Assembly: GCA_965196605.1 (NCBI GenBank)
Contig: CBDAKK010000003.1
Coordinates: 16,821-80,820, forward strand
Origin: Spirochaetia bacterium
GTDB lineage: Bacteria; Spirochaetota; Spirochaetia; WTKD01; G963693115
DNA length: 64,000 nucleotides
Direction: 5' to 3'
Position numbers and translations under genes: made by a program. Numbering within the stretch: position 1 is the first letter of the stretch; each line of letters starts with the position of its first letter. Shown piece by piece: positions 5,378-59,604 of the stretch. The notes beneath the pieces are model-generated. The model made no database searches. It was not told the origin of the DNA and saw only the letters and a list, made by a program, of their open reading frames with translations.

Positions 5378-5424
5378 AATTTACCGTACAGACGCGCTAC
5401 AGACAAAAATTTACACGCGTAACC

Positions 5425-5976: not shown

Positions 5977-6077
5977 AGCCTACAACACCACATCTACCAT
6001 ACCGCCTAAAACTATGTAGGCTTAAGCAAATACAACACATGACCTAGGGTCATCATTGTATCTACCTTTATAAGCAA

Positions 6078-6151
6078 TGGAGGTAATCGGATTCGAACCG
6101 ATGACCCCTAGAATGCAAATCTAGTGCTCTAGCCAACTGAGCTATACCCCC
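6078..6151 (-). tRNA. tRNA-Ala(TGC)
   Basis: Reverse complement folds as a cloverleaf: acceptor stem GGGGGTA/TACCTCC with a G3:U70 pair (alanine identity element), D-arm GCTC/GAGC, anticodon stem CTAGA/TCTAG with loop TTTGCAT (anticodon TGC), T-arm ATCGG-TTCGAAT-CCGAT. CCA is not encoded. Confidence 0.85.
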
Positions 6152-6642
6152 AATCCTTTTGAATTTTTATAATACTAAATGCTTTCTCAAATGTCAACAC
6201 AATATGTGATATTGAGGCAAGGTTGCTTTTGTGGAGAGAGTGCCTCACACCCTCAAGCATTGAGTGAACGCCATAGAAAAGAGAAAAAAACCTCCTATGA
6301 AGCTAACGCCATAGAGACAAGACACAAGCGCAACTATGAAGGAAGTACCAAAACACAAGCGAAGGGATGCAAACTATTACATAAGCGCCGCGGTGTGGCG
6401 CAAACATGGAGATTGCGTCAAAGACTTCCCCGTAATAAGACGATGCTTACAATTTATGTGTGCAGTCGAAAAGGTGCGTTAACGTAGCAAAAAGCAAACC
6501 GAGTATCAAGTACAGTTACTACTAAACAATCGCTAGATAAGCGACTTGACTTTTGCTCTCCTTTCAACGTTTTTCTGTTGCGCGCAGCTACTTACATCCA
6601 TTTTTTTGTAAAAAAAACAAAAATGACTATACATAATATACC

Positions 6643-7848
6643 ATGATTTATCAAAAGAAAATTTTTAGGAATATATCCCAAATATCATTCATAAGCGCAT
6701 TTACGCTTATATCGTTTATTATTACTAGTTGTGATTTTGATAAGCCTATACCCTCAAATAATGGCAGTGATAAAAAAGCCGTTTATGATAATAATAAACT
6801 CTACGCTGCCATAGGATTTAATCCTAACACCTCCCACCTTACAGGAAAAAATGTTCAAATTGCAATATTGGAAGGCGACGCTCGCTATATTATTGATGAT
6901 GACGTAACTTATATGCAATTCAAAAATAGGTCATTAGGTGTTTTTGAAGGCAAGCTTTACCTGCTCAAAGAAGCGCGAGAGAGATTTTTCCATGCAACAG
7001 CAGTCGCCTCAGTTTTGGCAAGTAAAAACATAGGAATAGCTCGTGGAATAACCTTCTATCCAATGAGTACGGCAGCGCACACTATTGCTGATGTTTACTC
7101 CACAATAAAAGGCTATAATATCCTTGCTATTAATAACAGTTGGGGCAGCCATGCAAAATGGTCACATGCTATTACATTCATAAAAAATGACACGCAATAT
7201 TGGGATAAAGAATGGATAGATTCTGTAGGCAGAAAACTTAACTGGCCTCGTAGCGAAAAAAAGAGAAAATTAGATGCATTTGCCAACGATATGGAAAACA
7301 ACAAGGACAGAGCACCCCTGTGGGTTTGGGCAGCTGGAAATGTAACTTATGGTCGTCCTTGGGGAAGGCTAGATGATGTAAGATATTCTGCTGGATTACC
7401 TTACTATATTAAAAGTCTAGAAAAATATTGGATTGCCGTGGCGGGAGTCAGATTTAATGGCTCGTATTCTTCGCTATTTCCTTGTTCAAGAATGAAAACA
7501 TGGTGTTTGGCTGCTCCAGCAATAAACGTAAATATACAATCAGGAGGAAAAAAGGATGTTAAAACCGGTACGTCGTTTGCTGCTCCTCAAGTAACAGCAG
7601 CATTGGCATTGTTGCAAGAAAAATGTCCTAGTTCCTCACAATTTGAAATACGAGACATACTTTTACGAACTGCCCGTCATGAGACTGCAAATGGTTACCG
7701 TCTGAAGGCTAAAGACGGCAGCGTTGTAAAAACAACGCAAATAGCGGTTACAACTGCAAACGGCACACAAGAAGAAAGAGCGTTATCTTACGAATATGGG
7801 CATGGCATTCTGCGCTTAGATTTGGCACTGAAGCAACCTTGTCGCTAA
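6643..7848 (+). CDS. S8 family (subtilisin-like) serine peptidase, probable lipoprotein
   Basis: Signal peptide with lipobox ITSC. S8 active-site Ser motif GTSFAAPQVTAA, His region FHATAVASV. AT-rich relative to the flanking genes. Confidence 0.65.
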   Translation: MIYQKKIFRNISQISFISAFTLISFIITSCDFDKPIPSNNGSDKKAVYDNNKLYAAIGFNPNTSHLTGKNVQIAILEGDARYIIDDDVTYMQFKNRSLGVFEGKLYLLKEARERFFHATAVASVLASKNIGIARGITFYPMSTAAHTIADVYSTIKGYNILAINNSWGSHAKWSHAITFIKNDTQYWDKEWIDSVGRKLNWPRSEKKRKLDAFANDMENNKDRAPLWVWAAGNVTYGRPWGRLDDVRYSAGLPYYIKSLEKYWIAVAGVRFNGSYSSLFPCSRMKTWCLAAPAINVNIQSGGKKDVKTGTSFAAPQVTAALALLQEKCPSSSQFEIRDILLRTARHETANGYRLKAKDGSVVKTTQIAVTTANGTQEERALSYEYGHGILRLDLALKQPCR

Positions 7849-7917
7849 AAGCTTCAATTCCATTGAGCGTATACGTAGCATCTTGTTACTGTATCAATGT
7901 TGTAGCACGCACTAAAA

Positions 7918-8568
7918 CTAACACACCGTGTAAAAATGCAAGCTTGAGCTGCCGACAGCTCTGGTGTCTGCTTTGCGCAGTTCGCCATAAGAGTCATGCA
8001 GTTTTTCAGGCGTAGGAGTGTGTATTACCACAATGCTTGTAGGCTTAAGCAACGCGCTCTGCGCTATTTTGCGTAGCAAGTCACCCTTGTGGGCGTACGC
8101 AAAGGGCGGGTCACAATAAACAATGTCATGCGTTTTTTTGTGCTTCACGATAAAGCGTTCAGCTTTGTCTTTGTACAGAAACACCCTTTTTGGGCGCGCT
8201 TGACCCGTACCACAAAGTAAGTTTATGTTTTTAAGCAGCGTAGGCCACTTGCGCGCGTCGCTTTCTACCGCAACAGCATGCGCAGCGCCGCGTGAAATAA
8301 ACTCCAAGGCCATAAGCGCCGAACCCGAAAACATGTCAACAATGGAGCATCCCTCAAAGGCCGTGTGCGCATTTGTGCTTTCTGCATGAGCTTGTACCCC
8401 GCCGGTGCGCGCAAGCATGTTAGCAAGCACTTGAAAAAGCACCTCGCGCATCACAGACACTGCAGGGCGTATTTCACCCGGCGGGCAGGCAATGCGCGTG
8501 CCTTTATGCGCGCCTCCAGAAATAATAAGAGAACCCTTCATAATAGCGCTACACCAGCGCATGCCCAC
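7918..8568 (-). CDS. rsmD: 16S rRNA (guanine966-N2)-methyltransferase RsmD
   Basis: 216 aa with DPPF motif (VYCDPPFAY) and a Rossmann methyltransferase fold. Confidence 0.7.
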   Translation of the reverse strand: MGMRWCSAIMKGSLIISGGAHKGTRIACPPGEIRPAVSVMREVLFQVLANMLARTGGVQAHAESTNAHTAFEGCSIVDMFSGSALMALEFISRGAAHAVAVESDARKWPTLLKNINLLCGTGQARPKRVFLYKDKAERFIVKHKKTHDIVYCDPPFAYAHKGDLLRKIAQSALLKPTSIVVIHTPTPEKLHDSYGELRKADTRAVGSSSLHFYTVC

Positions 8569-10684
8569 GCGCTAGCACATGAGCGCGCATGAGCGCATGT
8601 TTTTCATCACTTAAGTGCGGGTCAGCCATGAGCATGTGGCGCGCGTATTTGTGCGCATTGTCTATAATGCTTGCATCTTCCGCCATGTCAAAAAACTCAA
8701 ACAAAGCCGAACCCGACTGGCGTATTCCCAACTGGTTTATGTCGCCCGGACCTCGAAGCAATAAGTCACGTTCGGCTATAACAAAGCCATCTCGTTCTTC
8801 GTACAGCACCTTCAAGCGCTGTGTCGCGAGCTCCGAAATAGGCTTTCTGTACACAAAAATAGCCTCACTCATCAAGCTACCCCGACCGACCCGCCCGCGA
8901 AGCTGATGCAGGGTTGCAAGCCCAAATCTATCAGCGTCAAAGACGCACATGGTCGTTGCTTGTGGGACGTCTATGCCAATTTCAATAATGGTGGTGCTCA
9001 CAAGCGCAGAAATTTTTCCACGCGCAAAGTCGCGCACTATGCGCTCGCGCTCTTTGGCTGCAACCTTAGAATGCAACAAGGCAACGCTATAGGGCTTTAG
9101 CGCCTCCTCTATGAGTGGATGCATGGCGCTGGCGCTTGCAATGCCCGCACTGTGTCCAGCGTCTTCAAAAACGCCGCGTTCGCCTTCCTCGGCTTCTTCT
9201 CTCTCCGCATCTTCTATGGCAGGAAAGACAAAAAAAGCTTGTTCACCCTGCGCGAGTTTTTGTTTTACGCGTGAGTACACTTGCGTACTTTTTTCATGCA
9301 AAACAAGGCGTGTGCGCACCCCCGCTCTGCCCGAAGGGAGCTCAGTAAGCGTGCTTATGTCTAAGTTGCTGTAAAGCGTTAAAGCGAGTGTGCGCGGTAT
9401 GGGGGTTGCCGACATAAACAGCGCATGTACATTTTCACCCTTTGCAAGCAAAGTAGCGCGTTGCTCAATGCCAAAGCGGTGCTGTTCGTCTATTACGGCA
9501 AGGCGCAAGTCTTTATACTGCAGCGCAGGCGAGTACAGCGCGTGCGTACCCACCACCAATTGTGCAGACCCGTCTGCTATTTGCTCGTAGGCTTTTTTAC
9601 GCGCAGCGCTACCCATGCTGCCCGTTACAAGCACGGGTTGTATTTTCACAGACTCACAAAGTTGCGCAATGGTGCTAAAGTGCTGCAATGCCAAGGCTTC
9701 AGAGGGTACGGCAAAGCAAACTTGCCCTCCGCGCCCTAGGCTAAAAAGCGCCACACACAAGGCAACAACGGTTTTTCCTGCGCCTACATCCCCTTGTAGC
9801 ATTCTACGCATGGACGTACCCTCATGCATACTTTGGTGCATGTCGTAGCTTATTTCATTTATGCTCTGTATTTGCCCTGCGTTAAGCGCAAAGGGCAGCG
9901 CGCTAACAAAGGCGTGCAGCAAAGGGCTTTGCATTGCTTCATGGGGTTGTGTCGTGTCTTTGCTTTTTTGCTGATGCGTAGTAGTTTTTTTTGCGCGCCC
10001 ATACTGCATGGAAAGCTGAAACAAGAGTAATTCATCAAAGGCAAAGTAGCGCCGCGCCTCCTCTGCTTCGTCTAGGCTATGTGGAAGGTGCATCATGCGA
10101 CAGGCCTCTTGTCGACTTATGGAAGCGCCGTCACGCAAATTTGCTATGCGCGTGTTTTCAAGCGCCGTTTTTACGCACAACAAAAACATGCCTTGACTAA
10201 TGCCCGTACCGTGTAATTTGTAGCGCGGCACTACCGCGCCTTTTCTGCTTGCCTCACGTACTACTTCAAAGTCGCTTGAAACAAGCCTGCCATAAAGGCG
10301 CGTAAACTTACCCCAAATGTCAATTTCACTTCCAAGGGGTAACACGCGTTGCAAAAATTCTCGCCCATAGCAGTGGAGTTCCGCGCATCCGCTTTCATCA
10401 CGTAGCAGCACCTTCAAAAGCCTCCCGCGCCTTTTAAGCCTTACAAAATCGTGCCTCTCAATGCGCACGCGTACTAGCATTTTTTCATCAGCTGAGGCTT
10501 GGGCAAGTGGCGTTGTGTGCGTGCGGTTTTCGTACGCAACAGGAACATGCGCAATGAGTTGCCCCGCGGTACCTATGCCCATTTTCTTAAGCTTCTCAAT
10601 AAGCGTAGTTTTATAGCGCGCGTGTACGGCGCTCTTTTGCACAAGCGACGTTATATCATCCGTAATATCTGAAAACAAGGACAT
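8549..10684 (-). CDS. recG: ATP-dependent DNA helicase RecG
   Basis: 711 aa with Walker A GDVGAGKT, DEQHRFG, and the helicase C motif QLRGRVGRG. Confidence 0.85.
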   Translation of the reverse strand: MSLFSDITDDITSLVQKSAVHARYKTTLIEKLKKMGIGTAGQLIAHVPVAYENRTHTTPLAQASADEKMLVRVRIERHDFVRLKRRGRLLKVLLRDESGCAELHCYGREFLQRVLPLGSEIDIWGKFTRLYGRLVSSDFEVVREASRKGAVVPRYKLHGTGISQGMFLLCVKTALENTRIANLRDGASISRQEACRMMHLPHSLDEAEEARRYFAFDELLLFQLSMQYGRAKKTTTHQQKSKDTTQPHEAMQSPLLHAFVSALPFALNAGQIQSINEISYDMHQSMHEGTSMRRMLQGDVGAGKTVVALCVALFSLGRGGQVCFAVPSEALALQHFSTIAQLCESVKIQPVLVTGSMGSAARKKAYEQIADGSAQLVVGTHALYSPALQYKDLRLAVIDEQHRFGIEQRATLLAKGENVHALFMSATPIPRTLALTLYSNLDISTLTELPSGRAGVRTRLVLHEKSTQVYSRVKQKLAQGEQAFFVFPAIEDAEREEAEEGERGVFEDAGHSAGIASASAMHPLIEEALKPYSVALLHSKVAAKERERIVRDFARGKISALVSTTIIEIGIDVPQATTMCVFDADRFGLATLHQLRGRVGRGSLMSEAIFVYRKPISELATQRLKVLYEERDGFVIAERDLLLRGPGDINQLGIRQSGSALFEFFDMAEDASIIDNAHKYARHMLMADPHLSDEKHALMRAHVLARGHALV

Positions 10685-10938
10685 ACATTCACGCTACCAC
10701 GTTACTCATGGGTTCGTGCAAATTTTTCTTGTTGATGCGACACGTCTCATAAAGATATCTTTATTATACTTAAGCCGAAAGCAACACAATATAAGACGCT
10801 TACATGAATACACATACCTATTCCCTACAGGATCAAATTTTACCAAAAAATAACTCAAATTTTTCATAAATTGACTTTTTTAGGATTTTTTTGTAATATA
10901 TAAACACATAATAAATAATTCTTACGGAGGAATACATT

Positions 10939-11247
10939 ATGAAAAAACAAAATAGTTTCGGCGTATTTTTAGTCGCTCTTTTCTTAGTGGGTGTAGTGAG
11001 CCTTACATTCTCACCCTTGACACAAGCGCAAAGCGTTGTAAACAGTGGGACAAAGCGTGAAGCCTCAAAAAGCAAGCAGGCTTATGCCATGAAAATGTTA
11101 GAAGCCGATAACTTATTTTCTCGTTGTTTCTCTAGTATTGACAATGATAGTCGCTATTTTGCACAAGAAATGATTGTATGCTTTCAAGCAAAGGACATAG
11201 CACAAAAGCATGCGCGATTGAAATTGAGAGTTGTGGAAGACCATTAG
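10939..11247 (+). CDS. small secreted hypothetical protein
   Basis: GGAGG ribosome-binding site 8 nt upstream. N-terminal signal peptide. AT-rich. Confidence 0.4.
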   Translation: MKKQNSFGVFLVALFLVGVVSLTFSPLTQAQSVVNSGTKREASKSKQAYAMKMLEADNLFSRCFSSIDNDSRYFAQEMIVCFQAKDIAQKHARLKLRVVEDH

Positions 11248-11392
11248 TGTACAATGCCTACTCGGGTTCAAGCTTTGCTATGCTTGAACCTGCCATTTTT
11301 TTACACGCACCATACCAGTAATGGGCAAGCTGTGAGTAATAGCATTGCTTAATTATTTACGCCCTGTCCTTGACTTTATTTTTATACTACAT

Positions 11393-11436
11393 GCAATAGT
11401 AAAGAAATTATGTCGACATAGCTTCCTTACTATTGC
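11393..11436. promoter_or_regulatory. large imperfect hairpin (14-bp arms, palindromic loop ATGTCGACAT) upstream of the PTS gene
   Basis: gcaatagtaaagaa...ttccttactattgc with one mismatch in the arms. Located about 145 bp upstream of the PTS start. No clear T-tract follows. Confidence 0.3.
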
Positions 11437-11580
11437 AAATGTATATTTTGAAAGAATTAGAATCTCGATATAATTATAAAAAAGAGAATATATTTGAATT
11501 TTTGCTTTCTTTGTTGAGAGTATCAATTTCATATTATTAGCAAATGCCCAAAAATAATACAAATTTTTCAAGGAGGCAGC

Positions 11581-13202: not shown

Positions 13203-13910
13203 ATGATGAGAAAAATAAAAATAGCAGCGGGCTTTGCCCATGTGGACTACGGGCACATTGCCGATTTGGTCAAAAAAGTTGATGAGTCGGGATGCGACTA
13301 CATACACTCGGATGCCGCGGATATGCACGACTTGAAAAATATGCAGTTAATGGGCGGACACCAAATTATAGAAGGCATGAGGCCTCACACAGACAAGCCC
13401 ATAGAATGTCACTTTTACACACGCACCTGCGACAAGCTTTTTGTAGACAAAATTGCTAAGGCGGGAGCTAACAGTCTCATTGTGCCCGCAGAACATTTTA
13501 TTGGAGCTCCGCTGGCCTACCTCATTCACTACTGTCGTAGCTACAACATGGGCATAGGGCTTGCTATAGGGTGTTACACGCCGCTGTCCTTTGTAGAAGA
13601 AGCTATTTACGACATAGACCGCTTGCACATTGTAACACACGGCGTGGACAAGACAGACGGAAACGAAAACTGGTCGTGGCGCCCTTCAGTTTTGAATTTG
13701 ATTGAACGCGCGCGGCGGCTTATAGACGAGAAGAACCCGCGTTGTGAACTCGCGCTTGATGGTGGCATGCGCCTTGATGACATGGCTCCGCTTATTAAAA
13801 CTCAACCCGATGTGTTAATACTTTCCTCCTTGCTGTTCAAACACCCTGAAGGCATAGCCTCGGGGGTTGCGGCGGTAAAAGCACTCATAGAACGTGAGCA
13901 AGGCCAATAA
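13203..13910 (+). CDS. ribulose-phosphate 3-epimerase-like sugar-phosphate epimerase (TIM barrel)
   Basis: 235 aa. The N-terminal KIAAGFAHVDYGHIADLVKKVDESGCDYIHSDAADMHD resembles the RPE/AlsE family. Starts 5 bp after the PTS gene. Confidence 0.45.
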   Translation: MMRKIKIAAGFAHVDYGHIADLVKKVDESGCDYIHSDAADMHDLKNMQLMGGHQIIEGMRPHTDKPIECHFYTRTCDKLFVDKIAKAGANSLIVPAEHFIGAPLAYLIHYCRSYNMGIGLAIGCYTPLSFVEEAIYDIDRLHIVTHGVDKTDGNENWSWRPSVLNLIERARRLIDEKNPRCELALDGGMRLDDMAPLIKTQPDVLILSSLLFKHPEGIASGVAAVKALIEREQGQ

Positions 13911-14091
13911 CTTGAGTGACAATGCCTGAAAATTACACGTAATGAAAAATAAAAGACGGCTTAGTTTTTCAGCATTTTACGTGACAAGGGGCGCCATGCA
14001 TCAGCAATGAAGCAATAAATAAACATCAATTTTTACTCTTGAATATTTGTATCTATTGCCTATAGTACTAGTGCAGTAAAAACATAAGGAG

Positions 14092-14526
14092 ATGAAATGT
14101 ATGAAAAATATACTTACTTGTTTTTCTTTAATTTTAGTGCTTTTCGTAAGCGCATGTGATCCATCATTAGGAGAAAAAAAACAGAATAACAACACGGATA
14201 AGACGGATAAGTCAGCCGAAGTATCGAATGCTGAAGCTATTAGCAATGGAGGAAAGCCTCATGCCCTTGTTACTCCTGCCCGCCCTAATATTCAAATTAA
14301 TGCTCCCGCTCCTGGTGTTGCTCCCGTGAGTATTACAAATACTGACGAAAACCTTGAATACAGAATACATCCTCCCGTAGCGGGCATAACACTGATAGGG
14401 GACGTCATCGATGCAGACCGTTCTGCTTCAAACGTTATTTTGCAAGTACGTACAAAAGAAACAGCTACACATCAAGCATCAACTTGGGTAAGTAGCGCTG
14501 CCTTTGACATCACTATCTCTCCCTAA
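14092..14526 (+). CDS. small lipoprotein, hypothetical
   Basis: AAGGAG ribosome-binding site, signal peptide with lipobox VSAC. Confidence 0.45.
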   Translation: MKCMKNILTCFSLILVLFVSACDPSLGEKKQNNNTDKTDKSAEVSNAEAISNGGKPHALVTPARPNIQINAPAPGVAPVSITNTDENLEYRIHPPVAGITLIGDVIDADRSASNVILQVRTKETATHQASTWVSSAAFDITISP

Positions 14527-14579: not shown

Positions 14580-16175
14580 TCAAGCCTTTTGAATGTTACA
14601 AAAAAGTTCAGACTGCGCCTGTGCCTGTGCTACAAACATTTCTTCGCCAGAAATTGTGGCGCAGCCAGCATTTTGAGCCTCTTGTAAAAATTTAGTGCAT
14701 GGAGGCGTGTACACAATGTCGTAGGCAATTTCCTTTCCGCTAAATTCATAATTGGGGAGCGGCGTTTGCTGTGGCGCATTCATGCCCACGCTTGTAGTTT
14801 GCACAATAAGCTCACTGTGCATTTTGATGGCGGCGTAGTCTGTAATGGGCGCGTGTGCCACGGCAGCACCATAGCGCTTATGTAAAAACAGCGCCAGTTC
14901 TTCTGCGTTTTTCAAGGTTCTATTAACAAGCAGCACACGCGCGCCTTCACCCAAGAGCGCATGAGAAACCGCGCGCGCCGTGCCGCCGCTGCCTACAACC
15001 GTGCACGCCATGCCTTGTAGCTCTTTGTTGGCACTTGCAAGCCGCGTGCGCAAGGGCTGCAAAAAACCCACAATGTCGGTGTTGTACCCGCGCGTTTTTT
15101 GTACGCCACTTATGCTTTCTACCACAAGCGTGTTGCAAGACCCGCAGCGCAGCACGGCTTCATCCACTTCATCCAACAAAGGTATAATCGCGCTTTTATG
15201 TGGTATGGTGACGGAAAGCCCACGCAGGTTCATGTGCTCCATGAGGGGCGACAGTGCGGCGACATCATCTACGCTTAGGTGGACGTACACGGCATCAAGC
15301 TCTTGTTTTTTAAAAACCGCATTGTGAAACTCCGGCGACTTTGAGTGCATGACGGGGTTACCCACAACGGCAAAGACGCGCGTCTTGTCATGTAACTTTT
15401 TGTATGAATACGTTTCACACAGTGCCTTAGGGTCAAAATGCCCTGCGGCGGCTTGGCGCGTCCCCTGCGCTGAGGCGTAGGTCCACAGCGACCCGCTGCG
15501 TGCGGTGAGTATGCGCGCGGGTCTGCCAAAGTCACCCATGGGTGCAAGCACGTAGCGACCCCGCATGCTCTTAAGCTGCTGTGCACCTACAAACAATGCT
15601 TCGAGCTGCCACGCACTCATGCACATAAGGGCTTGTTTTATAAGCGCCTGCGGGTACAATTCCGCAAGTCCTTTCATTTCTTGGAGCCACGGCATGCGCG
15701 CATAATCAATGCGCCCCTTTGCACCTTCGCCGTTTTCATAAAAGGCGCGCTTGTCATCAAACCAGTGTCTCGAAACTATAAGCCTACTTGTTGCCGCATT
15801 TTGCGTTTTCACATACATGTGCTTGCAAAAACTCTCATGCTCTGCTTCTACGTCTATGTAATCAAAAGCACCTGAGGCCATAACCTGTTCCAACACTGCG
15901 CGCCGTTCGCTTTCATGCGCAGCTTCGCACAGTCCGCCATCCGTCTTGGTGCGCAGCGTAAAAATAAACTGTATCGCGCGCTGTTTTTTTTCACCCCGCG
16001 CCCACGCAATGCAAGCTTGAGCAAATTCACGCGCCTTTGCGGCTCCGCTTTCAAGAGCGCTCGCACAGTCAAGCAAGTCAGCTCGCAACTCCACAAGGTC
16101 TATGTACCCTGCATAATGCTCTATGTCGCTACTCATGTGTGCAAATGTGGGCGCGGTAAGTGAAAGGCAAATCAT
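14580..16175 (-). CDS. bifunctional 3-dehydroquinate dehydratase (type I) / shikimate dehydrogenase
   Basis: N-terminal AroD-like half and C-terminal AroE-like half with NADP-binding VVGSGGTARAV. Its first roughly 53 codons lie inside the 292-bp duplicated segment. Confidence 0.75.
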   Translation of the reverse strand: MICLSLTAPTFAHMSSDIEHYAGYIDLVELRADLLDCASALESGAAKAREFAQACIAWARGEKKQRAIQFIFTLRTKTDGGLCEAAHESERRAVLEQVMASGAFDYIDVEAEHESFCKHMYVKTQNAATSRLIVSRHWFDDKRAFYENGEGAKGRIDYARMPWLQEMKGLAELYPQALIKQALMCMSAWQLEALFVGAQQLKSMRGRYVLAPMGDFGRPARILTARSGSLWTYASAQGTRQAAAGHFDPKALCETYSYKKLHDKTRVFAVVGNPVMHSKSPEFHNAVFKKQELDAVYVHLSVDDVAALSPLMEHMNLRGLSVTIPHKSAIIPLLDEVDEAVLRCGSCNTLVVESISGVQKTRGYNTDIVGFLQPLRTRLASANKELQGMACTVVGSGGTARAVSHALLGEGARVLLVNRTLKNAEELALFLHKRYGAAVAHAPITDYAAIKMHSELIVQTTSVGMNAPQQTPLPNYEFSGKEIAYDIVYTPPCTKFLQEAQNAGCATISGEEMFVAQAQAQSELFCNIQKA

Positions 16176-16309
16176 AATTTCATTGTACGCAAAAACTCGT
16201 CAAAGGCGCAGCGCGTGTGTGTGCACAAAACCCTATACAATAAAACCATGCAAGAGAGAATTTTAACTCAGAATATAGCCAATCATATAGACTCACGCAT
16301 TGTACTTTG
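16018..16309. repeat. left copy of a 292-bp direct repeat (about 99% identical to 17619..17910)
   Basis: Direct comparison of the two segments shows 2 mismatches. Contains the aroDE 5' end plus a truncated 5' fragment of the tRNA-ligase gene (MQERILTQNIANHIDSRIVL...). Confidence 0.9.
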
Positions 16310-16518
16310 GAGGGTTGCTGTTCTGTTTGTATTGGTAAATAGTTGCACTCTAATTACTAACGCAATACATTAGTAATGTGTAAGAAATACCACAAAGGGT
16401 ATACAAATGCAAACATGATATCGGTGCATAAAGCAAAAAGGAGCAACAATAGCTATTGTTTTCATCGTATTATTTACTAGATATAATTATATAGCCACAA
16501 AACAATCAAAACATAAAT

Positions 16519-17589
16519 ATGATTAAAAGTATTCAGCCTCTAAAAATTATAGTCTTTTTTTTGTTTATAATATTGTTTCTTCTTGCTTGTCCTACTTTCT
16601 TGGAATTAGGTGTTGAACATGTTAAAGAAGCAAGCGATGGTCAACTCTCTGAGTCTTTAGTTGCAGGAGCTGTTGGTGAGAAAGGATATAAAGATGGATA
16701 TCTTCTTGAGGCGCGCTTTGATACTCCACATGCGTTTTCTGCAGACTCAAAAGGTAATGTGTATGTTGCCGATACAGGAAACAATGTTATACGAAAAATA
16801 AGCTCTACAGGTATAGTAACAACATGGGCAGGCAACAAAGATACAAGAGGTTTTCGAGATGGACATCGTCTTACTAAAGCATTGTTTGATAAACCGACAA
16901 GTATAGTAATAAATAAAAATATAATTTATATTGCGGATAGTAATAATCATCGGATACGAAAAATAGTGGGTGATATTGTGAGTACAGTAGCCGGGGGCGA
17001 TGCGGGATATCAAGATAATCTAAATGGAGTAGCAGGTGTAAAATTTGAGAATCCTGGCAAACTCCAATTAATAAAAATCAATGAATCTGATAGATATTCA
17101 TCTCCTGAAAATGGAGATTGGGCTGCAGCAGCATTTAACGAATTCAAGACAGTTAATTACTATAACCATGGATATCATGAAAAATACGGAAATGATCATA
17201 TAGATATTTCCTTGCTAGATGGTCCGAATGCAAATAGATGGAGAGTAATAGCTATAAAGGATGATACTGTAAAAGAAGTTAGCACAATAGATAGTGATAT
17301 ATATGATACTGTATCAGAAGTTAGCAAAAATAAAGATATTGTCTGTATGAGAGATATTAAAGGGGAGTATAACGATACAAGATGTTTAAGTAGAGCTGTT
17401 CTTCTCATGCCAAGAAAAGATAAAGATCCTGTCATAACGATAGTTGGTGAGAAAAATGTTTTTGATTCTTTCCATATTATTCTTGTGCCAACAAAACACG
17501 TTATTATTAGTTATGATAAATTAAAACATGGTATATTGAAGTTAAGGCACGGTGATAATTTTAATCCTGAATCTTTTCCTCGGCCATGA
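16519..17589 (+). CDS. NHL-repeat lipoprotein with a novel His-rich C-terminal domain (paralogue 1)
   Basis: Signal peptide MIKSIQPLKIIVFFLFIILFLLAC. NHL-type repeats (NVIRKISSTG..., NNHRIRKIVGD...). C-terminal segment HIDISLLDGPNANRWR...ILVPTKHV is shared with the ORF at 35691..36626. Strongly AT-rich relative to the flanks. Confidence 0.7.
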   Translation: MIKSIQPLKIIVFFLFIILFLLACPTFLELGVEHVKEASDGQLSESLVAGAVGEKGYKDGYLLEARFDTPHAFSADSKGNVYVADTGNNVIRKISSTGIVTTWAGNKDTRGFRDGHRLTKALFDKPTSIVINKNIIYIADSNNHRIRKIVGDIVSTVAGGDAGYQDNLNGVAGVKFENPGKLQLIKINESDRYSSPENGDWAAAAFNEFKTVNYYNHGYHEKYGNDHIDISLLDGPNANRWRVIAIKDDTVKEVSTIDSDIYDTVSEVSKNKDIVCMRDIKGEYNDTRCLSRAVLLMPRKDKDPVITIVGEKNVFDSFHIILVPTKHVIISYDKLKHGILKLRHGDNFNPESFPRP

Positions 17590-17618
17590 ATAGCGGCACT
17601 AAGAGAAAAATTATGGTA

Positions 17619-17776
17619 TGAGCAAATTCACGCGCCTTTGCGGCTCCGCTTTCAAGAGCGCTCGCACAGTCAAGCAAGTCAGCCCGCAACTCCACAAGGT
17701 CTATGTACCCTGCATAATGCTCTATGTCGCTACTCATGTGTGCAAATGTGGGCGCGGTAAGTGAAAGGCAAATCAT
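17619..17776 (-). pseudogene. duplicated 5' fragment of the aroDE gene
   Basis: The first 53 residues are identical to the N-terminus of the 14580..16175 product. It then reads into the inserted sequence. Confidence 0.7.
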
Positions 17777-17910
17777 AATTTCATTGTACGCAAAAACTCG
17801 TCAAAGGCGCAGCGCGTGTGTGTGCACAAAACCCTATACAATAAAACCATGCAAGAGAGAATTTTAACTCAGAATATAGCCAATCATATAGACTCACGTA
17901 TTGTACTTTG
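17619..17910. repeat. right copy of the 292-bp direct repeat
   Basis: Identical to 16018..16309 except for 2 mismatches. Carries a duplicated aroDE 5' fragment (track ORF 17561..17776) and the true start of the tRNA-ligase gene. Confidence 0.9.
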
Positions 17911-19138
17911 CGGATGGGTGCACCGCATACGAGAGTTAGGGGGCATTGCCTTTGTGTTAATACGCGACAGAAGTGGCATTGCACAAGTGGTGTGCGAAAC
18001 GACTTCAGAAGCCTACAAAACGCTGAGCCTTGAATGCGTGGTTTCACTTGCTGGTACGGTGTGCAAAAACGACAAAGCACCCTATGGCGCAGAAATGCAT
18101 GAACCCGAAATTACCGTGCTCTCCAAGCCGCAAGGCGACCTTCCGCTTGCTGTACACGCACCCATAGACAAAGTGAGCATAGACGTACTCTTGAATCACC
18201 GCATTGCCTCTCTGCGTATACCAAAAGTACGCGCAATTTTTGAAGTGCAATCCGCAATACTCCAATGCTTTGCCGCGTACATGCGCGAGAAGGACTTTAC
18301 AGAAACAAAAACCAGCAAGCTCATTGGCAGTGGCACCGAAGGCGGGACGGGGCTTTTTGAAGTTCAGTATTTTGACGGCTCGGTTTTTTTGGCGCAGTCT
18401 CCGCAGTTTTACAAGCAAGCAGGCATTGCAAGCGGACTAGAGCGCGTCTTTGAAATTGGGCACGTCTACCGCGCTGAAAAACATGAGACCAACAGGCACA
18501 TCAACGAATACGTTTCACTTGATGTAGAAATGGCCTTTGTCTATGAGGTAGAGGAACTTATAGAGCTGCAGCGTGGGTTTTTACAGCGTTTAAGCGAATT
18601 GCTGCTCTCAAACTACAGCGCGCAGCTGAGCATGTGGGACGCAGATGTGCCACAGCCCGAAGCGCTTACAAAAATTCCATTGCTCAGCTATGATGAAGGA
18701 AAACAAATAGCCGCTCAAAACAGCGGAGAGCGCATTTTGGACATAGACCCCAAGGCAGAGCGCGTGCTTTGCGAATGGGCGGAAAAACAATACGGCGTGA
18801 ACGCGGCATTTGTTGCGGGGTTTCCGCGCCGCAAGCGCCCCTTTTACACCATGCCCGACGGCCAAAAAACCAAGGGCTTTGACCTTTTGTTTGGAGGCGT
18901 GGAAATTTCCACGGGGGGCTTGCGCATTCACGACTACACCGAGCTGTGCGAAAGCGCCAAAAAATTTGGGCTTGCCACTCAAGGTTTAGAAGACTACTTG
19001 TCTATTTTTGCCTATGGCTGCCCGCCACACGGAGGCTGGGCTATAGGCTTAGAACGCCTCACGCAAAAAATACTCGGCCTTTCAAGCGTCAAACTCGCCG
19101 CCATGTTTCCACGCGACAGAAACAGAGTTCGCCCATAA
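17849..19138 (+). CDS. class IIb aminoacyl-tRNA ligase, archaeal/eukaryotic-type aspartate--tRNA ligase (could be Asn-specific)
   Basis: About 430 aa. N-terminal OB fold ([26 protein letters not shown]), class II motifs [27 protein letters not shown]. Start chosen at MQERIL (17849) rather than the track start 17816. Confidence 0.65.
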   Translation: [429 protein letters not shown]

Positions 19139-19990
19139 GTGCTTTGTGGGGGGAGTGTCCCCCCACGCCCCCCCCGTGGGTAAGACGCGATACTGCGCTT
19201 ACGCGCGGGTATTTGTGCCATGATTCACACGGTGTTATATGAATTCTTTCTGTTGCCAAGCAGCAGTTTTAAATACGCTATCTATTCGGATGGCCGTTCT
19301 TTTTCTTTTCTTTTTTACCATCCATAGCGCTCGCTTGTGCCATCCATGGCACAAGCGAGCGCTATGCGCGAGTAGGCTGCACGCCGTGTGTGGTATGGCT
19401 CACGCGGTATTGTATGAACTTTTTCTGCGGTCAAGCAGCCGCACCTGCTATGACATACGCTCGGATGACTGTACTTTCTTTCTTTTCTTTTTGTGCGACG
19501 CAAAAAGAAAAGAAAGAAGAATACCAAAGAAAGAAAAGAAAAAGCCGCTGTGGGGGCAAGCCCCCACACCCCCGCGTATTAAGCAAACGCTTCTTGTATC
19601 ATCCCTGTCAGCCTATGCGTGCCGTCCATGGCACGGCTGTGATGACGCTCACGAGCGTAGCGAGGGGATGCAAACTATTGCATAAGTGCTTTGTGGGGGG
19701 AATGTCCCCCCACGCCCCCCGTGAGTAAGACGCGGTACTGCGCTTACGCGCGGGTATTTGTGCCATGATTCACACGGTGTTATATGAATTCTTTCTGTTG
19801 CCAAGCAGCAGTTTTAAATACGCTATCCATTCGGATGGCCGTACTTTCTTTCTTTTCTTTAACATCCCTGTCAGCCTTAATGCCCCGTCCATGGGGCGGC
19901 TGTGAGGACGCAAAATGTGTAATCCTACGCAAAAGCATGTGGTAGTTTACACGCGGTTAAGCAAGCATGAAGCTTGTAACAAATAAATCT
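19139..19990. repeat. composite GC-rich intergenic repeat element, family copy 1; contains two copies of a roughly 160-bp module plus several palindromes
   Basis: Module gtgctttgtggggggagtgtccccccacgcc...ttcggatggccgt occurs at 19139-19300 and 19684-19845. Hairpin GTGGGGGGA-GTG-TCCCCCCAC at 19146-19166. Palindromes centred on CCATGG. (CTTT)n/(AAAG)n palindrome. Related sequences are at 25080-25500 and 32090-33260. Confidence 0.8.
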
Positions 19991-23097: not shown

Positions 23098-24195
23098 TTA
23101 GGGGAGTGGAACTATGAGCAGCCTATTTTCAGTTGGGCGCACTGCCCGCCAACCTATGCGAAACACCATGGGGAGGCTTTTCTGAGGCACGGGAATTGCC
23201 ACTTCGTTTATTTGCAGTGTAATCGCGGCAGCATTTGACACGGAGAGGTCTATGTACTGCGTTTCTGGCACAGTTTTGAGAATGGGCGTATTTATAAAAC
23301 CTTGAAGCAACTCTTCAGAGTTTTCATATTGATAGTAAACCGCATCCGCAATTTTGGTGCCTAAGCGTAGTTGTATAGGCCGCATAACGGGTGATGAGAG
23401 CACTTGAAACACTTCTCCGTCCGCGTCTTCCAACACTTCTTCTACGGCATTATTGAGCTCTGCTATGGCTACGTTTTCTTGGGTTTGCGGCACCCGTGGG
23501 TTGCTTGTACGCGGGTCAAAGCGCAAAAGCAAACTGCGCCGCGCAAGGTTAATTTCACGGAGTATCACAATGTACTCCACATTTTCAGAAAGCAAAATGG
23601 GCGTAGGGGTATTTTCCTCAAGTGTGTATTTTGTTTCTCCAATGCTAATAATGGGTGGAGATATCGATGTTACAACTGCGGTAGCTTCCGACTCACCCTT
23701 AACAAGCAGTATGGTTTCCTTAAGATCAAAAGTGTTTTCGTAAATGCTTGTAACCGTGGTTATGTCCACGCTTTCTTCGCCTTGCTGCTTTGCCCTTTCT
23801 GCAATAAAGGAACGCACCTTAGGATAGGTCCACCAGAGCCCTACGCCACATAAGACGACAAGCACTGACACTATAAACAAGACGGGTGAACGTTTGCGCT
23901 TTTGTTTGGCATTTTGTTTTTTTTTCGATATATTGATAACGTCAAACTGTATGGGCGTTTCCGATACCGCGGTAGATTTAAACAAGGCTAAGGCCTTCTC
24001 TTCATCTCCTCCAAGGTATTTAGCGTACAACTTAATAAAGCCCACAAGATGCATTTCAGAAGCCATTTTTTCCTTGTTCATGTTTTCAAGCGCTTCAATG
24101 ACATCTGTTACAATTTTTGTATCTTCGGAAACCTGCTCAATACTAAGCCCGCGTGCTTCTCTGAGTTCCTTTAAATATTCTCCATATTGTTTCAT
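23098..24195 (-). CDS. RodZ-like membrane protein with an N-terminal XRE-type HTH
   Basis: MKQYGEYLKELREARGLSIEQVSEDT (HTH), single TM segment, extracellular C-terminal domain. Start moved to the ATG at 24195 to avoid overlap with the upstream gene. Confidence 0.5.
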   Translation of the reverse strand: MKQYGEYLKELREARGLSIEQVSEDTKIVTDVIEALENMNKEKMASEMHLVGFIKLYAKYLGGDEEKALALFKSTAVSETPIQFDVINISKKKQNAKQKRKRSPVLFIVSVLVVLCGVGLWWTYPKVRSFIAERAKQQGEESVDITTVTSIYENTFDLKETILLVKGESEATAVVTSISPPIISIGETKYTLEENTPTPILLSENVEYIVILREINLARRSLLLRFDPRTSNPRVPQTQENVAIAELNNAVEEVLEDADGEVFQVLSSPVMRPIQLRLGTKIADAVYYQYENSEELLQGFINTPILKTVPETQYIDLSVSNAAAITLQINEVAIPVPQKSLPMVFRIGWRAVRPTENRLLIVPLP

Positions 24196-24211
24196 ATTGT
24201 GCAGCCAATCC

Positions 24212-24985
24212 TTAAAATAAAAAGTCTTCCATAACATTTGCCGTTGGCGGCGGGTCGTAGTTAAAACGCACGTCGGGAATTCCCGTGTTGACTTGTATGT
24301 TTGAAAAATCAAATTGTACGGTTTCTCTATTATAAGTAAGAGCCTCAACTCTATAAATAAGAAAATCCCTTCCTATTGAAATAAGCAATTCACGAAAGTT
24401 TTGTGAGGGCGACTTCCATTTCATGCGTATTTTCATAACGTACTCGCGAGGCGTTCTATTTTCTAGTGGAACAAATGTAGGCTTATCGACATATGAAGCT
24501 ATATAACGCTTGAGTAATTGATCTAAGCCCGTGCGACTTGTAAAAGTGCCCGTGGATGTGTTTGCGTTTTTTGACTGTTTCAAGACTATGTTCTGCTGCG
24601 GAATGTAAATGAAAAAACTTTTCCCGTCGCTTACCATGACCTGATCTTTAGGGCTAGAAAAATTGATGCGAAGCTTATTAGGCACTTTAGAAAACAGGAG
24701 TCCTTGGTTCACTTTTCTATTTTGTGTTATGATAACATTTGCTTGAAAGTCCTCAAAGCTTGCGTATTTTTCAGCAACTTGTTGCATAAAGTCATCTGCC
24801 GTTTCTAATGATGCTTGTTGTGCTTGTAGCCCATGCTCCGCAGCAAAAAATAGCAAGAAAGCCAAAAAGTACCGCATATGCTTAGCACTACTACGGTGTT
24901 GCGTAGCTTGTATTGTTTTTTTTCTTTCCATGTGTAACGTTATTTCCTTACTGTATTGTCTACGTTGGAGTTGGGGCGTGCGCAC
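24212..24985 (-). CDS. LolA-like outer-membrane lipoprotein carrier family protein
   Basis: Signal peptide plus DGKSFFIYIPQQN, which resembles the LolA beta-barrel core. Confidence 0.4.
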   Translation of the reverse strand: MRTPQLQRRQYSKEITLHMERKKTIQATQHRSSAKHMRYFLAFLLFFAAEHGLQAQQASLETADDFMQQVAEKYASFEDFQANVIITQNRKVNQGLLFSKVPNKLRINFSSPKDQVMVSDGKSFFIYIPQQNIVLKQSKNANTSTGTFTSRTGLDQLLKRYIASYVDKPTFVPLENRTPREYVMKIRMKWKSPSQNFRELLISIGRDFLIYRVEALTYNRETVQFDFSNIQVNTGIPDVRFNYDPPPTANVMEDFLF

Positions 24986-25079
24986 AAAGGCGCAAATTCC
25001 ACAGTACTTTATACTTTATTTTTATTATGAAGTATTACACGCTTTTATAGCAATAAAAGGGCGTGGTTTCCACTTGCAA

Positions 25080-25500
25080 TAGTACAGGATTTATGTCTGC
25101 TGACGCAGTGTTGCTTTTGGGGGCAAACTCCCACGCCCGTCTTGGGTAAGACACGGTACTTGCGCATGAGCGCTTTGTGGGGGAGTGTCCCCACGCCCCC
25201 TTGTAATAAGACGCAGTACTGCGCTTGCGCGCGCGGGGGCTGTCCGCCACCCATGGCACGGCTGTAGGTGCAAGCACAAGTTGCTTTAGCTTGATTGCTC
25301 ACGCTTTTTGTACCATCCATGGCGCCCTATGCGTGTCATCCATGACACGGGCGTGCCACTGCGCGGGACGCACTATGCAAATATTTCGGACGGCTGTTCT
25401 TTTTTTCTTTTTTTACCATCCATGGCATGTGCGTGCGACGGAAAAAGTCGAGAGCACGAAGGCACGACAGCCGTGCAACGAGCAGTATACAATATAATTA
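25080..25500. repeat. composite GC-rich intergenic repeat element, family copy 2
   Basis: Shares tgctttgtgggggagtgtccccacgccccc, taagacgcagtactgcgcttgcgcgcg, accatccatggc, and a ttctttttttctttttttacc tract with copy 1. Confidence 0.75.
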
Positions 25501-25587
25501 TTGATATACAAAATGCAATTTTCTTTATATCAACATTAATGTTTGTTATTTTTTACATCTTGTTTTATGACATGAGAGGAGGGTCTT

Positions 25588-26433
25588 ATGGTGTCAATGG
25601 AATCAATTATTGACATGCATGTTCATTCCGCGCCGGATATTCGTCAAAGGGCGTATACAGATTTTCAGTTATTGGAGGCGGGTGTGAGCGTGGGAGCAAG
25701 GGCAATTGTCATTAAATCTCACCATGGGACGACCATGAATAGAGCATTTCTCGCGAATGAATATAACAAAAAAGTTCACCAAGACAGCAACGATTTTGTT
25801 ATGTATGGAAGCGTAACCTTGAATGATGCAATTGGTGGACTCAACTCCATTGCCGTAGAAACTGGATTGAAAATGGGCGCGAAAGTCATTTGGCTGCCGA
25901 CCACAGGGGCAGCAAATCATAAAAGGGCTTACAGAAAATCCGGCGGCATTGTGTGTGCAGAAAATAACAAAGCAGTGCCAGCGGTTCTTGAAATTTTGAA
26001 GATGATTAAAGACTACGATGTGGTTTTAGGTACAGGGCATGTTTCTGCGCAAGAAACATTTATTGTAGTCGAGGAAGCGAAAAAAATGGGAATTGACAAA
26101 ATTGTTGTGACGCACCCCGAGTTTTGGGTTACGCCAATGTCCTATGAAGACCAAATCAAAATTGTAAAGGACTACGACGTCTACCTTGAGCGATGTTATG
26201 CTCAACCCATGGGTGGGGGAATGTACAAAAGCAACCTTGAAGATAATTATGAAATATTCAAAAAAGTCGGTGCAAACAATTATCTATTATCTACCGATGG
26301 TGGACAAGTCGAGAATCCACATTGGGAATTGGCATATGCTGAGTATATGCAATATTTCTTGGACAAGGGCGTGAGCGAAAAAGACTTGCATATAATTACA
26401 AAAGAAAATGCAAGAAAACTATTGTCCATATAA
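25588..26433 (+). CDS. metal-dependent hydrolase of the amidohydrolase/TIM-barrel superfamily, function unknown
   Basis: GGAGG ribosome-binding site. N-terminal metal-binding motif DMHVHSAPD. Confidence 0.4.
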   Translation: MVSMESIIDMHVHSAPDIRQRAYTDFQLLEAGVSVGARAIVIKSHHGTTMNRAFLANEYNKKVHQDSNDFVMYGSVTLNDAIGGLNSIAVETGLKMGAKVIWLPTTGAANHKRAYRKSGGIVCAENNKAVPAVLEILKMIKDYDVVLGTGHVSAQETFIVVEEAKKMGIDKIVVTHPEFWVTPMSYEDQIKIVKDYDVYLERCYAQPMGGGMYKSNLEDNYEIFKKVGANNYLLSTDGGQVENPHWELAYAEYMQYFLDKGVSEKDLHIITKENARKLLSI

Positions 26434-26449
26434 ATAACAGGATTCAATC

Positions 26450-27739
26450 ATGCTAAGTGTAATCGTTATCCTTGCAATTGTAGTATCTATTGGCTTGGGC
26501 TATAAAACAAAAATAAACACCGGCTTATTTGCCATTGTGTTTGCGTACCTTATTGGTTCTTTTATTTTACAATTATCTCCAAATCAAATAATCAAAATGT
26601 GGCCCCTAAAAATCTTTTTTATTATTCTTTCCGTTTGCGTGTTTTATAATTTTGCCACCACAAATGGAACATTGGAAAAATTATCTCAGCATCTGTTATA
26701 CCGCACCAGAAAAATTCCCCTCTTATTACCCTTTGCTATTTTTTTTACCGCAACATTAATTGCAGGATTAGGGGCGGGCTATTTTACCGTGCTGGCATTT
26801 TTTGCGCCCATCACATTGATTGTGTGTGAAAAAGCAGGGCTGCATAAATTAATTGGCGCGCTCGCAGCGAATTACGGCGCACTGGCCGGCGCCAACTTTA
26901 TGACAAGCGGCAGTGGAATTATATTCAAAGGGCTGATAGAAAATAGCGGATACACTACTGAGAGCTATCAATACACTTCGACAATATTTGTAACAACACT
27001 CATTCTGCCAATAATAGTGCTTGCTATTCTTATCGTATTGAATAAAAAAATTAATCATGTTCCCGCAGTGTTGCATATATCCCCGCCAGAAAAATTTGAT
27101 AAGAAGCAAAAAACCACCGTAACGCTCATGATTGTCATGGTGCTGCTTGTGCTCTTATTCCCCGTTTTACATTCTATTTTCCCCAATAATGCGGGTATCA
27201 AGTTTATGAATTCTAAAATCAACATTGCATTTGTTGCGATGATTTTTTCATTGATTGCCTTATTTTTGCGACTGGGAAACGAGAAAGAGGTTATTGCAAA
27301 AGTCCCTTGGCAAACATTAATCATGATTTGTGGTGTGGGCATGCTGATTGCTGTGGCAATAAAAGCGGGCACGGTTGATTTATTGTCCCATTGGGTTGGC
27401 ACGACAATTCCTCCTCAATTGGTGCCAATAACCTTATCGCTAGTTGGCGGCTTCATGTCATTTTTTAGCAGCACGTTAGGAGTTGTGACGCCAACCTTGT
27501 TTCCCATTGTTCCTGTTATTGCCCAAGGTACAAGCTTGAACCCAGCAGTGTTATTTTCTGCTATTATTTTGGGCGCGCAGGCAAGTTCTATTTCTCCGTT
27601 TTCTTCCGGGGGGAGTTTGATACTAGGCGCTACAAAAGAAGAGGAAAAAAACAAATTTTACAACCAGTTGATTATAGCAGCCCCGGTAAGTTTGGTTGCT
27701 GCAATAATTTTTAGTTTTATTCTGAGCTATATTGTTTAA
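26450..27739 (+). CDS. polytopic membrane transporter (GntP/DcuC-like ion-transporter superfamily)
   Basis: 429 aa with about 12 predicted TM segments. Sits next to the sugar-acid genes. Confidence 0.4.
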   Translation: MLSVIVILAIVVSIGLGYKTKINTGLFAIVFAYLIGSFILQLSPNQIIKMWPLKIFFIILSVCVFYNFATTNGTLEKLSQHLLYRTRKIPLLLPFAIFFTATLIAGLGAGYFTVLAFFAPITLIVCEKAGLHKLIGALAANYGALAGANFMTSGSGIIFKGLIENSGYTTESYQYTSTIFVTTLILPIIVLAILIVLNKKINHVPAVLHISPPEKFDKKQKTTVTLMIVMVLLVLLFPVLHSIFPNNAGIKFMNSKINIAFVAMIFSLIALFLRLGNEKEVIAKVPWQTLIMICGVGMLIAVAIKAGTVDLLSHWVGTTIPPQLVPITLSLVGGFMSFFSSTLGVVTPTLFPIVPVIAQGTSLNPAVLFSAIILGAQASSISPFSSGGSLILGATKEEEKNKFYNQLIIAAPVSLVAAIIFSFILSYIV

Positions 27740-35301: not shown

Positions 35302-35690
35302 ATGCTTCCATATAAAGGAATAGCAACTTATGAATTTGAAACAAGGAAATTGATAAAAATGTTAATGAAAAGTAACAATGCCACGCGGTTAGGAGCATTG
35401 TTTTTATAATTTCATACCTATTGTTTGAGAGATTTGTGAAAGTAACTGGATTGTAATATGCAACACGACACTATAATTTAAGAAGCACATTATTGCGAAT
35501 TGCTATCTTTTTTGTGTTGTAGAAATATGATGTGCAAAAAATTGACACCTCCCTTGTACGCATGAAAGTTTTGCAAGAAGCCGAGCATGCAAACGACCGT
35601 ACCATTACTAACAAAGAAGTGTTTGTAGAATCAAACGCAATCTGAAATTATTTCGTCAAACTGCGCCTTATTAAAAATTTATTTGTTCTT

Positions 35691-59514: not shown

Positions 59515-59604
59515 AAACATACCCCGACAAATTAAAAATGATAATTATATACATTTTTACACAAATAACTTGATTTGTGTAAATAGATTTCATACCATAT
59601 AGGT

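Follow-up and report, generated by a model that had tools for sequence, protein, structure and literature searches.

A lipoprotein gene between two copies of the aroDE-aspS junction in an uncultured Spirochaetia lineage

How does a single gene that carries no mobility machinery come to lie between two divergent housekeeping genes, with the junction of those genes duplicated on either side of it? This question is raised by a 64,000-nucleotide stretch of Spirochaetia bacterium DNA (assembly GCA_965196605.1, contig CBDAKK010000003.1, positions 16,821 to 80,820), which is here called the window. Within it, a low-GC segment (I) carrying one lipoprotein gene, NHL1, separates aroDE from the aspartyl-tRNA ligase gene aspS and is flanked by a 292-bp direct repeat (R) of the aroDE-aspS junction. 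The locus adds one more case to a class of recombination products already known; it is a one-off scar and no new kind of mobile element. The origin that we favor, tentatively and at somewhat less than an even chance, is duplicative insertion, in which a foreign fragment would have been joined non-homologously to two chromosomal points lying 292 bp apart. The locus has the following parts:

14580 to 16175, minus strand: intact aroDE (531 aa), a fused 3-dehydroquinate dehydratase/shikimate dehydrogenase gene with its first 158 nt in the left repeat copy
16018 to 16309: left repeat copy (R-left), contiguous with the intact aroDE, which it serves
16248 to 16373, plus strand: truncated aspS' open reading frame (ORF; 41 aa), with 20 native codons, the 21st across the joint, then read-through into the insert
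16310 to 17618, plus strand: inserted low-GC segment (1309 bp; 33.4% GC vs. ~50% in the flanks)
16519 to 17589, plus strand: NHL1, a 356-aa lipoprotein gene encoding a signal peptide, the lipobox LLAC, two to three NHL repeats and a lineage-specific C-terminal half
17561 to 17776, minus strand: truncated aroDE' ORF (71 aa), with 52 native codons, the 53rd across the joint, then read-through
17619 to 17910: right repeat copy (R-right), contiguous with the intact aspS, which it serves
17849 to 19138, plus strand: intact aspS (429 aa from its conserved ATG), a non-discriminating Asp-tRNA(Asp/Asn) ligase gene

The two repeat copies align without gaps and are 99% identical, with 2 mismatches, and the alignment and a self-BLAST of the window (E = 3e-147 for the pair) agree with the coordinates, the 292-bp length and the ~99% identity that an initial annotation, made from the letters and ORFs alone, had given. 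That annotation had also placed the 5' ends of both genes within each copy, and this is what we found: each copy comprises the first 158 nt of aroDE (minus strand), the 72 bp between the genes and the first 62 nt of aspS (plus strand), corresponding to aroDE codons 1-53 and aspS codons 1-21, and the truncated ligase fragment on the left and the truncated aroDE fragment on the right (17561 to 17776) were both recovered as ORFs, free of frameshifts. The repeat identity breaks off sharply at either end, with boundary sequences (slash at the boundary) AGCT/TGAGC, GGTA/TGAGC, CTTTG/GAGGG and CTTTG/CGGAT, so that no more than 0-1 nt is shared at the joints. In the reading frames of the genes, both mismatches are synonymous third-position transitions, one in aroDE codon 31 (16083 T, 17684 C; CGA/CGG) and the other in aspS codon 17 (16298 C, 17899 T; CGC/CGT). 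Given that only 2 differences have accumulated over 292 bp and that the stubs lack frameshifts, the event is evolutionarily recent. A repeat scan and the self-BLAST revealed no other near-identical duplication bracketing a gene in the window, where the remaining repeats belong to a dispersed GC-rich palindromic family and to tandem arrays, none of them bracketing.

Both flanking genes are intact. The aroDE product matches DHquinase_I, Shikimate_dh_N and Shikimate_DH in Pfam and shares 62% amino acid identity with its orthologue in a related metagenome-assembled genome (MAG), L001, described below. The aspS product matches tRNA_anti-codon and tRNA-synt_2, and its nearest named homologues are Spirochaetia non-discriminating Asp-tRNA(Asn) ligases. 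Alignment with four related contigs (L001, L003, L005 and L014) sets the true aspS start at ATG 17849 (16248 in the left copy) and not at GTG 17816.

The DNA between the repeats is compositionally foreign. In addition to the low overall GC content, the GC content at third codon positions of NHL1 is 0.19, vs. 0.50-0.54 in the aroDE, aspS, rpe, PTS, UvrD-like and His_Phos_1 genes. The insert amounts to a single gene with 209 bp upstream and 29 bp downstream, in agreement with the earlier description of a ~1.3-kb AT-rich segment (16310 to 17618) carrying an NHL lipoprotein gene; NHL1 is its sole ORF of at least 100 aa, and no recombinase gene is present in it. NHL1 matches the Pfam NHL family PF01436 (E = 1.6e-12; 47.2 bits vs. 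a cut-off of 20) in two stretches confined to the N-terminal half (residues about 55-170), and its AlphaFold2 model has a mean pLDDT of 38, which is too poor for judging a six-bladed propeller fold. No Rfam family matched the repeat or the insert, and the insert had no match in plasmid, phage and viral (IMG/VR) collections.

Element classes that move genes by dedicated enzymes fit this segment poorly. A scan of the ~45 larger ORFs of the window detected no transposase, integrase or resolvase families (Phage_integrase, Resolvase, Recombinase). The insert also lacks terminal inverted repeats, the best local alignment between its first 80 nt and its reverse-complemented final 80 nt scoring 7, vs. 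a shuffled mean of 8.7. A transposon or insertion sequence (IS) was rejected on these grounds, together with the lack of another copy in the window and a duplication of 292 bp where target-site duplications are typically 2-15 bp; the earlier judgment that the duplication is far too long for a transposase is therefore upheld. An integron cassette was rejected as well, since the boundaries CTTTG/GAGGG and TGGTA/TGAGC do not conform to G/TTRRRY or attC and the 29-bp tail contains no imperfect palindrome. An integrase-borne element was likewise rejected, with no recombinase found and with repeats that restore two divergent 5' ends; the only tRNA gene of the window (6077 to 6152) lies 10 kb from the insert. 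One further candidate site had been pointed out inside the insert:

16353 to 16377: 8-bp-arm palindrome ATTACTAA-N9-TTAGTAAT

The palindrome is indeed present at 16353, and we attach no meaning to it: at least one such 8-bp-arm palindrome occurs in 46% of composition-matched (Markov-1) random sequences, and its candidacy as a functional site was rejected as chance level.

Very few relatives of NHL1 were found. The sole full-length match to NHL1 among 5.8 billion clustered proteins, P0020, is a paralogue encoded on the same contig:

35694 to 36626, minus strand: NHL2 (P0020), the only close paralogue of NHL1 (46-50% amino acid identity), in an AT-rich spacer adjoining a His_Phos_1 gene

NHL2 has no flanking duplication, and its resemblance to the insert is limited to the coding region (72% nucleotide identity). 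The protein clusters of NHL1 and NHL2 are both singletons, and the other NHL proteins among the matches listed cover only about 23-55% of the query. A profile of the C-terminal half (HMMER, 1.84 billion representatives) retrieved only NHL1, NHL2, P0241 and P0242, while a word-index search with the same half gave no match. P0241 and the closest aspS relative derive from one sample, and the gene for P0241 adjoins a His_Phos_1 gene; P0242 comes from a Tara metagenome. NHL1 belongs to a very small, lineage-specific family. Other copies of the insert were absent from the 16 kb to its left and the 46 kb to its right, where only the NHL2 coding region matches.

What does the junction look like where NHL1 is missing? 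Judging from AspRS, the window belongs to an uncultured Spirochaetia lineage, and five related junctions were read:

L014: AspRS identity 68%; aroDE (MICLSLT…) and aspS divergent, with a 65-bp spacer
L005: AspRS identity 69%; aroDE and aspS divergent, with a 155-bp spacer
L001 (OZ245332.1, a 1.85-Mb Spirochaetia MAG): AspRS identity 78%; aroDE and aspS divergent, with ~790 bp of 24-37% GC between them
L003: AspRS identity 80%; ahead of aspS, the DUF4325 gene pair of the L001 islet in intact form; the contig stops before aroDE
L002: AspRS identity 69%; no aroDE at this position

The repeat segment is single-copy at the junctions of L001, L005 and L014, and neither the NHL gene nor a duplication of the junction occurs in any of the related contigs. 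An empty site had been predicted for related genomes and was found, as a comparison between species, in L014 and L005; the same arrangement without a duplication, which would have spoken against an insertion of this kind, was not seen in the relatives, with NHL gene and duplication present in the window only. The L001 islet (7257-8000) contains an internally deleted DUF4325-type gene and an ABC-ATPase fragment (…IIFDEPTSNLD…) and is flanked by no direct repeat, while positions 1-800 of L003 hold an ATPase-like ORF and a DUF4325 (STAS-like) gene. These comparisons show the divergent aroDE-aspS junction to be ancestral in the clade and normally compact. Given that the L001/L003 junction carries another low-GC islet than the window, the junction has been struck by low-GC cargo at least twice independently, which makes the spacer a recurrent landing site. 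Closer relatives were not retrieved: exact-protein look-ups with NHL1, aroDE and aspS returned no identical record, a DNA pattern from the aspS start matched only the L001 genome (OZ245332.1), and no same-species match emerged from JGI metagenomes or from a peptide scan of genome contigs.

Candidate promoter elements in the left copy and in the insert are the following:

16176 to 16247: divergent intergenic region, copy 1 (72 bp), with a TACAAT box 6 nt before either start codon
16182 to 16187, minus strand: TACAAT box of aroDE
16236 to 16241, plus strand: TACAAT box of aspS
16459 to 16487, plus strand: promoter-like sequence (TTTTCA-17-TATAAT) 31 nt ahead of the NHL1 ATG

A TACAAT box precedes the aroDE start in all four genomes compared, by 6 nt in the window, L001 and L005 and by 7 nt in L014, and lies 6 nt before the aspS start in three of five (window, L005 and L014); in the relatives the boxes are at 7215-7220 (L001), about 3329 and 3464 (L005), and 337-342 and 384-389 (L014). 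A Shine-Dalgarno sequence is absent ahead of both aroDE and aspS. In leaderless transcripts, the -10 box lies about 7 nt before a transcription start that coincides with the ATG. Given the conserved TACAAT-N6/7-ATG geometry, and with a generic sigma-70 consensus scan uninformative (its site count equaled the shuffled expectation), the pattern suggests that aroDE and aspS are transcribed as leaderless mRNAs in this spirochaete clade. If this geometry is correct, both promoters would be packed into the spacer, and the short 65-72-bp version is probably all promoter. The duplication leaves 134 bp of native sequence ahead of aroDE and 230 bp ahead of aspS. The site TTTTCA-17-TATAAT, with 10/12 consensus matches the top site of the region in a scan that overall was not above chance, is likely NHL1's own promoter. 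No terminator-like site was found in the scan from the NHL1 stop to aspS.

AspRS is normally indispensable. A 1.3-kb insertion into R that did not duplicate it would probably disable a housekeeping gene wherever it fell, in the spacer or at the start of either gene, because it would break a coding 5' end or part a gene from its promoter. Only an insertion that also duplicates the junction would leave aroDE intact on the left and aspS intact on the right, and we infer that the duplication is what made this one survivable.

Under duplicative insertion, ~1.3 kb of low-GC DNA with one lipoprotein gene and its promoter would have entered by illegitimate end joining, the fragment ends being joined to chromosomal points 292 bp apart. 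The two joints may have formed on two sister chromosomes behind a replication fork, in which case the fragment bridged an unequal exchange, or at a break with widely staggered ends that were later filled in; the 292 bp between the joints would thereby be retained on either side of the insert. In Streptococcus pneumoniae transformed with a "lethal cassette," only merodiploids with an intact and an interrupted copy were recovered, which form when the donor DNA connects two sister chromatids (Johnston et al., 2013; PMC3784515). The sister-chromatid variant would be the model of Johnston et al. with illegitimate instead of homologous pairing. Once formed, the structure would have consequences for NHL1: transcription from the extra aspS promoter on the left would pass through the 41-codon stub into NHL1, and the extra aroDE promoter on the right would fire antisense into its 3' end. 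The repeats would also be a RecA substrate, so that NHL1 should occasionally be lost as a 1601-bp circle, with re-entry by a Campbell-type crossover possible. That this 1601-bp unit (R plus the gene) acts as a recombinase-free homology cassette, excised by RecA and re-entering the aroDE-aspS junction by single crossover, and that duplicative insertion is, more broadly, the source of the one- to two-gene AT-rich islets of the lineage, with this islet the one still young enough for its duplication to be visible, is a speculative extension that we consider quite improbable.

Other routes to the same repeat-insert-repeat (R-I-R) structure have to be weighed against this one. The initial annotation had proposed single-crossover, Campbell-type integration of a circular DNA carrying a copy of the junction. 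In the form weighed here, a ~1.6-kb circle (or a larger one, since trimmed) of conspecific origin, with one copy of the junction and the NHL gene, would have entered through RecA; we regard this as possible, though rather doubtful. The proposed geometry stands, R-I-R being exactly that of insertion-duplication, and the alleles fit too: copies that differ only at two synonymous sites are expected of a different allele of functional genes, and a crossover between the single-nucleotide polymorphisms (SNPs) would turn (T,T) and (C,C) parents into the observed (T,C)/(C,T), although ordinary aroDE/aspS recombination tracts ending within R could equally have produced the SNPs. The circular donor found no such backing, with a replicon, a mobilisation function, recombinase remnants and extra DNA all absent from the insert and no match in plasmids, phages or viral contigs. 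Moreover, the same pair of illegitimate joints would already have been needed to make a circle with R and I connected at both ends. It is established that a locus of this form can itself yield circles by RecA-dependent repeat recombination, and the circle could have left an R-I-R locus in one cell and entered another; the Campbell model is better seen as explaining the spread or loss of an existing R-I-R than its origin. The second origin suggested earlier, a tandem-duplication intermediate, does not hold as stated. Tandem duplication alone does not lead to R-I-R unless other events follow, nor can it produce A-R-I-R-B (A and B being the chromosome on either side) with A-R and R-B both contiguous; here, the copies lie 1309 bp apart with two novel joints, and the window contains no second copy of the insert. 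A multi-step version, in which R-R formed first and the gene then entered at the joint, or a larger duplication was trimmed to R-I-R, is improbable. Spontaneous tandem duplications are frequent, R-R would be neutral here since both genes remain intact, and the left R puts the aspS promoter upstream of NHL1, as in experimental selection of duplications placing transferred genes behind host promoters (PMC11111574); against this, two or more independent events would have to share their end points, and within 16 kb to the left and 46 kb to the right there is no second 1309-bp copy, only the paralogue's coding region at 72% nucleotide identity.

An assembly artefact, in which an A-R-B chromosome and a separate R-sharing molecule or strain variant were threaded into one path, keeps a small probability. 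The contig is metagenome-assembled, as its MAG relatives are, and A-R-B plus an R-I circle is graph-equivalent to A-R-I-R-B if reads are shorter than R, so that an extrachromosomal circle threaded into an empty chromosome by way of the common 292 bp is the one realistic form of such an error, and the two SNPs could be strain differences; both novel joints must nonetheless be in real molecules, and no viable simple-insertion haplotype supplies them. The contig also resolves a 4.9-kb array of six 813-bp repeats, implying long reads that would span the 1.9-kb structure, and the housekeeping ORFs scanned show no obvious sign of frameshift errors. Given this resolved array and a sister MAG consisting of a 1.85-Mb single contig, a long-read assembly was probably used. 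Very unlikely, finally, is a remnant of site-specific integration, a recombinase-less cassette resembling a CIME in which the R copies are attL and attR and an integrase acted in trans. Known integrative elements do carry target-gene ends of tens to >100 bp that restore the gene (phage 21/e14 in icd, HP1, SLP1), and the junction is filled by other cargo in L001 and L003, but those elements restore 3' ends and not the 5' ends of two divergent genes, and the L001 islet has no flanking repeats. In addition, neither the insert nor the larger window ORFs scanned encode an integrase, and the 292-bp identity block shows no recognisable core or arm structure. Given that every route left once transposition, integron capture, integrase-mediated integration and plain tandem duplication are set aside needs two non-homologous joints (R-end to I-start and I-end to R-start), a single event producing both is the most economical, which is the case for duplicative insertion.

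Several points weigh against duplicative insertion. No donor sequence, against whose flanks the joints might be compared, was found in the collections searched, and a second duplication-flanked insertion was found neither in the window nor at the junctions of relatives. The synonymous nature of both differences suits an allelic (inter-strain) origin slightly better than random mutation after the duplication, with a likelihood ratio that we estimate at about 3-5 from how many sites in the stubs and spacer are unconstrained, and hints at homologous recombination with conspecific DNA at some stage. We infer the essentiality of aroDE and aspS and their leaderless promoters, as well as the manner of joining and the selective rationale built on them.

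If duplicative insertion is correct, the locus would be a natural example of a gene without mobility machinery entering a site where insertion should be damaging or lethal, namely the promoter region that two housekeeping genes share. Duplicating a few hundred base pairs of the target would be what makes such an insertion viable and, at the same time, would give the incoming gene a spare housekeeping promoter. Since repeats recombine, scars of this type should be short-lived, and a young one would offer a rare view of illegitimate gene acquisition in an uncultured lineage. With one event known from one MAG, the general significance is limited unless further cases or polymorphism within the population come to light; it would rise with active excision and re-integration in reads or with more duplication-flanked islets in the genome.

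The window contains other features worth recording. AT-rich islets (26-40% GC) punctuate the ~50% GC backbone at 6500-7000, 10500-11500, 13900-14200, 24000-27500, 35000-37000 and 45000-45500, and several encode lipoproteins or secreted proteins, including a subtilase (6643-7848) adjoining tRNA-Ala and a lipoprotein (14092-14526). In L001, MacB, S41, His_Phos_1, aroDE and aspS genes are contiguous (3383-9302), whereas the window has aroDE-aspS and His_Phos_1 (36803-37513) about 18 kb apart; the arrangement would fit a roughly 22-kb inversion of 14092-37513 relative to L001. The ends of this proposed inversion fall at two AT-rich lipoprotein genes, at 14092-14526 and at the NHL paralogue (35694-36626), and an NHL-family gene likewise adjoins His_Phos_1 in L011, a contig of the L003 species.

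Dispersed, GC-rich, modular palindromic repeats occupy intergenic regions at 6357-6422, 19131-19911, 25130-25426 and 32236-33253, with GTGGGGGGAGTGTCCCCCCAC hairpins, a perfect hairpin with 21-nt arms (19323-19366) and TTTCTTTTCTTT / AAAGAAAAGAAA arms as examples. They occur in both orientations, are stacked to 0.8-1 kb between convergent genes, have no Rfam match, and look like REP/MITE-type elements of the lineage. A perfect 24-bp inverted repeat (59542-59565 / 61364-61387) surrounds a 1.8-kb island of 28-33% GC, which encodes a 154-aa ORF and a RhuM-family gene (60256-61353; PF13310, E = 3e-106) and may be a small mobile or invertible module. The six 813-bp tandem repeats mentioned above, 86-98% identical, are part of a very large repetitive gene on the minus strand (37750-45236), which is broken up into a short N-terminal ORF and three others, has no Pfam match, and is either a pseudogene or encodes a surface or phase-variable protein.

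Among known systems, Campbell insertion-duplication shares with the present locus two direct homology copies that flank the insert, two intact genes, and reversibility by repeat recombination; here, in contrast, there is one gene with its promoter and no vector, replicon or marker, and the homology spans two divergent 5' ends. Homology-facilitated or double illegitimate recombination accompanies natural transformation in Acinetobacter, Pseudomonas stutzeri and S. pneumoniae. Those events resemble ours in bringing in gene-sized foreign DNA without mobility functions through joints that are non-homologous and show little or no microhomology, and differ in that they usually delete or replace recipient DNA, whereas ~300 bp were duplicated here. 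Phage 21/e14 in icd and HP1 in a tRNA operon carry a replacement target-gene end and, as in the window, leave a partial gene copy of tens to hundreds of base pairs as a pseudo-fragment with the interrupted gene functional. They do so with a tyrosine integrase, a short core and 3' ends, in place of which the window has two 5' ends with a promoter region and no integrase that we could find.

In S. pneumoniae merodiploidy (PMC3784515), as proposed here, an inactivating insertion is recovered only with duplication of its target and the donor DNA sits at the duplication joint, although the duplications there reach 100-900 kb and depend on homologous pairing with IS-derived repeats, as opposed to 292 bp and non-homologous joints. 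The minimal mobile elements of Neisseria (PMC3787668) are exchanged by double crossover in flanking genes, which leaves no duplication; the likeness lies in a fixed gene pair bracketing variable cargo, with aroDE and aspS bracketing the NHL gene here, a DUF4325-type pair in L003, and the degraded form of that pair in L001.

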